DNA from: Blastocatellia bacterium
GTDB taxonomy: Bacteria; Acidobacteriota; Blastocatellia; UBA7656
Reading direction: 5' to 3'
Assembly (NCBI GenBank): GCA_035649735.1
Contig: DASRIZ010000347.1
Coordinates: 1,321-65,320 of the forward strand
DNA: 64,000 nt
Part shown: one piece after another, positions 17,263 to 18,267 of the stretch
Numbering within the stretch: position 1 is the first letter of the stretch
How the letters are laid out: each line of letters starts with the position of its first letter
The notes under the pieces: generated by a model
The model's input: only the letters and a program-made list of their open reading frames with translations
Told to the model about the DNA's origin: nothing
The model's database searches: none
Position numbers and translations under genes: made by a program

Positions 17263-18217
17263 ATCTCAGTAGCCCGTTGCCCGCCTGAGCCGCCTCGCGT
17301 TTCTGCTGCTCGAGTTCCTCAACTCGCCGCGCGATATCCGTTTGTTCCCGAGGCTCTTTGATCTCGCGCAGAGTTTTTATCGCCTCGTTGAACTGGTAAA
17401 GACCCGCGTAGCAGTCGGCCAATCCATACAGCGCCCGTACGCGAACCTCCGCGTCACGGCTTGACGTAGCAAGCATCTGATAAACAAGCACTGCCTGCTG
17501 ATACTGTCCGCGCTCGATGTGATAGATTGAGGCCTCGCGCAGATATGCCTGCTCGCTCAGCTCGTCATAAGCGACTTTCTCAATGACCTTCTCGTACTCC
17601 GTAAGCGCCTGACTATAGTTCCTCTGCGCAAAGTAGAGATCGGCGATACGCAGGCGAATGCGGCGCCGCTCGATTTCGTTTTGTGGGTTTAGGTTCTCAT
17701 ATTCGGCGATCGCTTCGTAGGATCGTCCCATTTCTCCGAGCACCTCCGCCAGGCGTTCACGCGCGAGCTGCGCGTTCGCGTGGGTATGATTCCGCTCAAG
17801 AAAAGTGGTGTAGTTTGTTCGGGCCTGGTCGTAGCGTTGCAGCTTGAAGTAATAGATATTCGCCAGTTGGAACCGCGCTTCTGCTGCCTTCTCGCTGTCA
17901 GAATCCTTTTCAAGGTATCGCTCGTATTCTTCGGCCGCCAGCTTATAGTCACCGGAATCCCACGCCTCCACGGCTCGTTGGAGAGACTGCTCAACATCGC
18001 GCCCGCATCCGACCGCCACAGTCAATAGAATAAGACTTATGCAAAAGGTGGGGGCGAGACGGCGACGGGGCGAGGGGGAGAGTGGGCGAGGCGGAGACGG
18101 GGCGACCGCGCGATGGGCCGACTGGAATTGAAAATTGAAAATTGAGAACTGAAATTTGAAAATCGGCGAGCGCCTACCGGTCCGACAAACTTGCAATTTG
18201 CAATTTACAATTCTCAA
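17261..18217 (-). CDS. TPR-repeat lipoprotein (start codon uncertain)
   Basis: TPR repeats run throughout. The lipobox LLTVAVGC follows RRRLAPTFCISLI, but the only in-frame ATG (18217) lies inside the upstream repeat element. TTG at 18025 and GTG at 18019 would delete the signal peptide. Confidence 0.7.
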   Translation of the reverse strand: MRIVNCKLQVCRTGRRSPIFKFQFSIFNFQFQSAHRAVAPSPPRPLSPSPRRRLAPTFCISLILLTVAVGCGRDVEQSLQRAVEAWDSGDYKLAAEEYERYLEKDSDSEKAAEARFQLANIYYFKLQRYDQARTNYTTFLERNHTHANAQLARERLAEVLGEMGRSYEAIAEYENLNPQNEIERRRIRLRIADLYFAQRNYSQALTEYEKVIEKVAYDELSEQAYLREASIYHIERGQYQQAVLVYQMLATSSRDAEVRVRALYGLADCYAGLYQFNEAIKTLREIKEPREQTDIARRVEELEQQKREAAQAGNGLLR

Positions 18218-18267
18218 TTTGCAATTCCCCGCGTCCTGTCGCCCCCGCGCCCTATCGACCCTCGCCC
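18048..18267. repeat. Three-tier composite palindromic element, copy 1: GGGCGA-rich outer arms, AATTGMA heptamer inner arms, conserved core
   Basis: Left arms at 18048-18163, core cggcgagcgcctaccggtccgacaaac at 18164-18190, right arms at 18191-18267. It ends 1 nt before the gyrA stop. Confidence 0.9.

Follow-up and report, generated by a model that had tools for sequence, protein, structure and literature searches.

In this study, we analyzed a 64,000-nucleotide stretch of DNA (the window, C347:1321-65320) from an 8.40-Mb assembly of 664 contigs with a GC content of 55.5%; the window sequence is also present in metagenome runs from rhizosphere and soil. Two of its gene junctions, gyrA-TPR lipoprotein gene and inositol monophosphatase (IMPase)-thrB, each contain an element of about 215 bases. 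Both elements are nested palindromes, in which an octamer arm of GGGGCGAN units and a heptamer arm of AATTGMA units lead to a 25-nt apex (the "core") and are followed by the mirror arms. No protein-coding genes lie within either element, the apex being only 25 nt long. The features, in window coordinates, are as follows.

17261-18217, minus strand: TPR lipoprotein gene (Pfam), longest open reading frame (ORF) from the TTG at 18217
18048-18267: copy 1, whole element
18048-18124: copy 1, outer G-rich arm of the GGGGCGAN type, 8-nt period (repeat analysis, spacing 8)
18125-18164: copy 1, inner AATTGMA arm, partly degenerate (AATTGAG, AACTGAA, ATTTGAA)
18165-18189: copy 1, apex (core), GGCGAGCGCCTACCGGTCCGACAAA
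18190-18226: copy 1, inner TKCAATT heptamer arm
18227-18267: copy 1, outer C-rich arm, up against the gyrA stop (18067-18076 pairs with 18259-18268)
18268-20721, minus strand: gyrA, 817 aa (Pfam), stop codon at 18268-18270
24323-25246, minus strand: GHMP kinase gene, thrB-like (Pfam), ATG 15 nt downstream of copy 2
25262-25478: copy 2, whole element, with five parts as in copy 1
25262-25320: copy 2, outer G-rich arm, 8-nt period
25321-25359: copy 2, inner AATTGMA arm (inverted repeat with 42-nt arms, 95% complementary)
25360-25384: copy 2, apex (core), GGCGAGCGCCTAGCGGTTCGACAAA
25385-25421: copy 2, inner TKCAATT arm
25422-25478: copy 2, outer C-rich arm, 1 nt short of the IMPase stop
25480-26247, minus strand: IMPase family gene (Pfam), stop codon at 25480-25482

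An earlier note on this DNA had described two copies with five parts in a common orientation and context, each abutting the stop codon of a minus-strand gene. This architecture was re-found in the sequence and in the Pfam neighbors, with a measured gap of 0 to 1 nt between the end of the element and the stop of the upstream gene (gyrA for copy 1; IMPase for copy 2). The two cores are identical at 23 of 25 positions. Over the inner 107 nt, the copies form a gap-free alignment of approximately 89% identity; the outer arms can be aligned unit by unit only. Runs of GGG or GGGG are present in the outer arms, and the inner AATTGMA arms are free of them. Copy 1 was intact in independent DNA runs, and the DNA contigs spanning it contained no indels that would indicate strain-to-strain gain or loss of units; metagenome contigs break off inside copy 2. 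In one low-depth contig from run X7, a soil metagenome, position 25251 is joined to 25489 and all of copy 2 is skipped; this contig may derive from a related species or from an allele in which the site is empty. The spacer at the opposite end of the TPR gene (17034-17262) contains a further nested hairpin with GAAGGCA outer arms, overlapped by an Rfam MIR529-like match at 17050-17265, and the TPR gene thus has multitier hairpins on each flank.

The proposal that these are structured elements was borne out by RNA folding, which was far beyond chance for both copies. When the gene strand is folded as RNA, the stem of copy 2 is almost perfect over about 100 bp, with a free energy of -147.9 kcal/mol (z, -13.9); that of copy 1 is more degenerate, at -101.6 kcal/mol (z, -4.2). 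A terminator scan of both loci detected no canonical site and no U-tract, and the promoter-like matches there were weak by-products of the 7-nt period. An Rfam search returned only plant and animal microRNA (miRNA)-precursor matches below threshold, and identity as a miRNA precursor was rejected, since such matches are generic for long hairpins. In the genome as a whole, AATTGMA hairpins occupy tandem, convergent, and divergent spacers in a ratio of about 15:4:5, which is near random placement and therefore argues against a dedicated 3'-end role. Contigs from four metatranscriptomes were scattered over the TPR gene and gyrA at low depth, and none covered either element. Transcripts that cross either site would be expected to fold into a stem of approximately 90 to 100 bp directly after the upstream stop codon, and such a stem would be both a likely RNase III substrate and a 3'-end structure, uncoupling the two cistrons. 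We infer that the elements are mainly selfish or neutral structural repeats, with an RNA stem that would insulate adjacent cistrons.

Both elements are nested hairpins without genes and belong to a lineage-specific, genome-wide population of hairpins that have 7-8-nt tandem-repeat arms; the GGGGCGAN units of their outer arms represent one "dialect," and the AATTGMA units of their inner arms another. TRF analysis of the whole genome identified 4,116 arrays, with period 7 dominant (1,375 arrays) and period 8 accounting for 371. The arrays of these two periods, about 1,700 in total, are nearly all in inverted pairs, and neighboring arrays of like unit were inverted in 248 cases and direct in 2, with a median loop of 29 nt. 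In agreement with the idea of a dispersed family, about 40 AATTGMA hairpin loci were counted in the assembly, many of them at contig ends where the assembly broke. Segmental duplication of the two window copies, which the earlier note had named as a possible origin if only those copies existed, was rejected because the genes flanking the two copies are unrelated. Both arms are complete at 24 of the approximately 40 loci, and about 16 of these 24 are nested in complementary outer flanks. The type of outer arm around the AATTGMA modules varies (GGGGCGAN, GGGCAAAG, GGCAGAAG, or GGATGGAG), the far arm always being the complement, and nesting of one dialect in another was seen at least 25 times genome-wide, invariably with AATTGMA inside. 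The GGGGCGAN palindromes comprise about 14 with a plain short loop, at least 12 with an AATTGMA module, and 1 with a PF05635 ORF.

Within each hairpin family, arm polarity is fixed (52/52, 48/48, 27/27, and 15/15): AGTCCGT comes first in 52/52 hairpins and CTGGTTT in 48/48, and the mirror order occurs essentially never. This rule cannot be reduced to "purine-rich arm first"; a polarity fixed for each family fits descent from founder hairpins. Among the relatives examined, AATTGMA arrays are confined to two genera, and the number of pattern matches among congeners ranges from 0 to 115.

The orthologous junctions have different histories. The IMPase-thrB site is empty in seven congeners (G012, G007, G010, G001, G008, G004, and G032), where 0 to 30 nt separate the genes and an ATGA stop/start overlap is frequent. 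The three closest species (G011, G005, and G003) carry an AATTGMA hairpin there, with GGAGCAGA or GGAGGAGCG outer arms and a common apex, GGAATTGATTCGAGCYGCAA, which differs from the window core. In this clade, the hairpin parts IMPase and thrB by about 230 nt, and the thrB ATG has no preceding Shine-Dalgarno sequence (compared with L074-L082). At gyrA-TPR, most species of the genus have a G-rich/C-rich hairpin, with plain GGGGCGAN arms in G003, GGCGAGGG plus GGAGCAGA arms in G011 and G005, and a short hairpin in G013; the 12 congeners with a readable junction all carried a G-rich hairpin there, and AATTGMA was found in none of them. Based on this distribution among the readable junctions, parsimony suggests that this lineage acquired the inner module of the gyrA-TPR element at the center of an existing GGGGCGAN hairpin, with the inner 107 nt copied into the older structure. 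The alternative, loss of the AATTGMA module from gyrA-TPR in every sampled congener, is less parsimonious.

We postulate that the inner module, comprising the AATTGMA arms and the apex of about 25 nt, was copied into the center of the older G-rich gyrA-TPR hairpin, most likely from the copy 7.2 kb away or from a close sibling of it. Given the lack of target-site duplications, copying would have occurred at the apices of hairpins, by ectopic conversion or template switching rather than through a transposase. The thrB gene would have lost the stop/start overlap that its relatives retain. We place the probability of the whole account (nested gene-less hairpins, an inner module copied into an older hairpin, and a core that is a subfamily tip) at roughly 60%.

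At C77:8691-9218, the arms of an AATTGMA hairpin are separated by 430 nt that encode a 122-aa four-helix-bundle protein of the PF05635 "23S rRNA intervening sequence protein" family (E = 6.7e-15). The genome contains eight PF05635 genes, and seven of these are bracketed by inverted 7-9-nt arrays that lie 378 to 486 nt apart, forming the following cassettes.

C264:234-767: PF05635 cassette with GTTTCTG arms
C265:5694-6307: PF05635 cassette with GGGGCGAN arms
C204:45439-46105: PF05635 cassette with GGTCATT arms
C343:10769-11415: PF05635 cassette with GGATKGAG arms
C562:11858-12370: PF05635 cassette with GGGCAGAG arms
C293:150-587: PF05635 cassette with TATAGGACC arms
C77:8690-9232: PF05635 cassette with AATTGMA arms

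The dialects of the C77 and C265 cassettes are those of the inner and outer arms, respectively, of the window elements. A C77-type gene (≥79% identical) with AATTGMA-dialect arms is syntenic in G012, G011, G013, G001, G007 (broken), and G018; the gene downstream of this cassette is presumably hisS-like, a name that we take from its N-terminal sequence only. The genomes with the syntenic gene come from the same two genera to which AATTGMA arrays are confined; array counts track the gene poorly, G013 having the gene and just one array match. Partial tandem duplications occur at the syntenic C77-type cassettes of L105 (G012:C13), L106 (G011:C30), and L107 (G013:C20), in which the duplicated unit is either the left arm plus the first 100 nt or so of the ORF or the last 100 nt or so plus the right arm, as if recombination or slippage had occurred between arm copies.

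The 25-nt loops of the window elements contain no PF05635 ORF. Derivation of the core from a cassette leader or ORF was not supported by local alignment to six cassettes with shuffled controls, in which one marginal case, the C586 loop, was encountered (p≈0.02, uncorrected). That loop (C586:12111-12180) resembles codons 8 to 14 of the C77-type ORF (AACGACTGATCAA), and the loop at C140:4745-4853 is similar to the 5' leader of the C77 cassette (TGGKTCYGGGTAACCT), each of the two matches being marginal. There is a hint in the sequences that some gene-less hairpins could be deletion derivatives of the PF05635 cassette, and the putative link between the hairpins and PF05635 is drawn from their co-occurrence. 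It is possible, if doubtful, that the window elements are nonautonomous copies of a transposase-free system, in which each PF05635 protein would recognize its own dialect (AATTGMA for C77; GGGGCGAN for C265), copies would be laid down at existing apices to give multitier palindromes, and the core would be the lineage mark of a recently active subfamily.

Other explanations for the elements were considered. The hairpins might have grown in place by slippage and been homogenized locally, with nothing copied and the likeness of the two elements due to convergence. Simple-repeat arms do gain and lose units, several copies show a gradation of units from G-rich at the outside to AT-rich at the inside, and relatives have different hairpins at the corresponding junctions; however, convergence could not have produced a nonrepetitive apex that is alike at 23/25 positions within an inner 107 nt that aligns gap-free at 89%. 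Furthermore, homologous apices are found within different outer-arm types, which indicates that the inner module moves between contexts and which growth in place does not explain. We therefore regard slippage as an unlikely origin of the pair.

The suggestion that the elements may be mobile and MITE-like was upheld in part. In this reading, they would be classical MITEs, moved in trans by a transposase via terminal inverted repeats, with the core as internal sequence. Dispersal in many copies (about 40 loci), orthologous sites that are either empty or filled, the wide spread of copy numbers among congeners, and the fixed polarity of each hairpin family, as expected of founder copies, are all consistent with MITEs. 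The diagnostic details point elsewhere, however. No target-site duplications were found at the window copies or at the other AATTGMA copies inspected: the module junctions read GGG/AATTG...CAATT/CCC or GAAG/AATTG...CAATT/CTTC and are complementary, not direct, and the outer ends of the window copies abut the stop codon without any repeat. The copies share no fixed terminal inverted repeat, since their termini are tandem arrays of varying unit number, and the outer arms are unlike between copies. No transposase was found between AATTGMA arms, where the sole ORF detected is a PF05635 gene, and none of the Y1 transposase genes is flanked by AATTGMA or GGGGCGAN arrays. The lone Y1/RAYT-like transposase gene with flanking repeats (PF01797, 86.9 bits; C229:386-730) has arrays of an unrelated REP-like unit of about 45 nt that contains GTAG, ggccgcgtagcggtctcc..., on either side (C229:1-1200). 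A classical MITE is therefore very unlikely. Membership in a REP/REPIN-RAYT system was likewise rejected, because the ggccgcgtagcggtctcc... units of the RAYT are unrelated to AATTGMA or GGGGCGAN; a classical REPIN system at C229 coexists with the heptamer hairpins.

The earlier note regarded the core as the best candidate for a recognition site and expected it to be conserved while the arms varied. The reverse was observed: the type of arm is maintained, and the apex diverges. A genome search allowing up to 5 mismatches found a near-exact core only at the two window loci. A loose consensus, GGCGAGnGCTTAnCGRTy-AGAyMAAT, fits about 12 to 14 of the approximately 28 AATTGMA loops in this genome, and the consensus-type loops other than the window pair are 50 to 70% alike. 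The loops of AATTGMA hairpins in congeners, even at the orthologous IMPase-thrB junction, are unrelated to the core, as are those of G018, and sharing of the apex with this other AATTGMA-rich genus by horizontal transfer was rejected accordingly. A relaxed core pattern gave matches at control level only in 20 relatives, and a search across all species representatives gave two chance matches. In the JGI metagenomes, the pattern recovered a strain variant of copy 1, one chance coding match, and two contigs carrying, in intact form, an element that is split between contig ends (C6 and C247) in this assembly. The 25-nt core marks the tip of the hairpins of a local subfamily and is not a recognition site. 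That it should instead be a functional protein-binding or small-RNA site, displayed on a long stem and regulating thrB and the TPR gene, is most improbable: at the two loci, the core is oriented and placed alike with respect to the downstream gene, and it is unchanged in independent metagenome runs, but there are only two close copies in the genome, relatives and public collections give chance-level matches, the orthologous IMPase-thrB hairpin of G011, G005, and G003 has another apex, and the Rfam matches are subthreshold miRNA hairpins.

Returning to the copied module, its effects are clearest at the start of the TPR lipoprotein gene. The lipobox cysteine of this gene is encoded at 18007-18005, and all of its orthologues are lipoproteins. 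The left outer arm of copy 1 overlaps the ORF, the first 20 nt or so of the arm (18047-18067) encoding the RRRLAP n-region. The earlier note had placed a sole upstream start codon, an ATG at 18217, inside the element; its location within copy 1 stands, but the codon at 18217-18215 reads TTG, and it is one of two in-frame minus-strand TTGs in the TKCAATT arm, the other being at 18196-18194. They lie 70 and 63 codons, respectively, ahead of the lipobox cysteine. Beyond these, the reading frame offers just a TTG and a GTG as starts, located 6 and 4 codons ahead of that cysteine, within the hydrophobic core.

In several relatives, an ATG is retained within GATGAAAAG, 1 to 2 nt past the gyrA stop; its frame matches that of the TPR gene in G013, G010, and G009 but not in G011, G005, and G002. 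This conserved start is missing from the window. In line with the earlier note, copy 1 has overrun the original 5' end of the TPR gene. The hairpin lies within the 5' coding region of the TPR gene in this clade, and its C-rich arm is translated as SPPRPxAPSP plus the n-region arginines. G003 has a good Shine-Dalgarno sequence and ATG upstream of the entire hairpin, and in G013 both are located in the hairpin loop. A strain variant, L085, retains the architecture and has four substitutions in the n/h-region, all conservative and hydrophobic (L>V, A>V, and T>I), which would fit translation through this stretch. A TPR lipoprotein deprived of its ancestral ATG would have to use one of the stem-embedded TTG codons for initiation, and the repeat-encoded extension would be removed along with the signal peptide. 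Since the signal peptide is cleaved, such an extension would be harmless.

The two loci provide a dated example of a hairpin that gained an inner module at its exact center; the orthologous sites of some relatives are empty, and sister species have a different apex. They also illustrate the effect on neighboring genes, since a gene pair with overlapping stop and start codons was moved 230 nt apart and a lipoprotein gene lost its start codon, with repeat DNA apparently read as a disposable extension of the signal peptide. If the PF05635 link holds, the gene-less copies would be the main output of a novel type of mobile element. With regard to annotation, gene callers will assign wrong starts to genes beside such hairpins, and assemblers break contigs in them.

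The elements can be compared with several known systems. A Rho-independent terminator consists of a short GC-rich stem followed by a U-tract. Like intrinsic terminators, the elements place a strong stem immediately past a stop codon; unlike them, they have no U-tract, their stem is about 100 bp rather than 5 to 15 bp, and copies of the family are also found between divergent genes. With MITEs such as Nezha, Correia, and RUP, they share small size, lack of coding capacity, many copies, presence/absence polymorphism, and strong fold-back, but they have no target-site duplication, fixed terminal inverted repeat, or transposase partner, and gains apparently occur at hairpin centers. REPs are short palindromic units with a conserved head, and RAYT genes are flanked by matching units. 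The likeness of the elements to REP, BIME, and REPIN sequences is that of dispersed intergenic palindromes, frequently just past stop codons, that form stem-loops in mRNA; however, REPs are about 20 to 40 nt long with a GTAG-type head and a cognate RAYT, whereas the arms described here are 7-8-nt arrays whose length varies.

ORF-bearing 23S rRNA intervening sequences are known from Coxiella and Leptospira, where their stems are cut by RNase III (PMC4990558). The PF05635 cassettes and these intervening sequences have in common with the window elements a long stem of inverted terminal sequences, and AATTGMA and GGGGCGAN arms occur in both cassettes and elements. Unlike the cassettes and intervening sequences, the window elements have no ORF, are situated in spacers of protein-coding genes and not in 23S rRNA, and are two dialects deep.

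Among intergenic heptamer repeats, the cyanobacterial STRR sequences are one example. Others are GGGAATC in Xanthomonas and GGGGAYT in Nostoc (PMC4692102) and TAACTGA in the Beggiatoaceae (PMC4679880). Like these, the present arrays are tandem 7-nt units enriched between genes, near stops or starts (period 7 accounts for 1,375 of the 4,116 arrays, and both elements abut stop codons). In such repeats, G-rich units may form quadruplexes. The known reports chiefly concern direct arrays, whereas the arrays described here are almost always mirrored into hairpins, are of dozens of different dialects, and in some cases are nested. While REPs, MITEs, and bacterial heptamer repeats are each already known, hairpins with tandem-array arms two dialects deep are hardly covered in the literature that we found.
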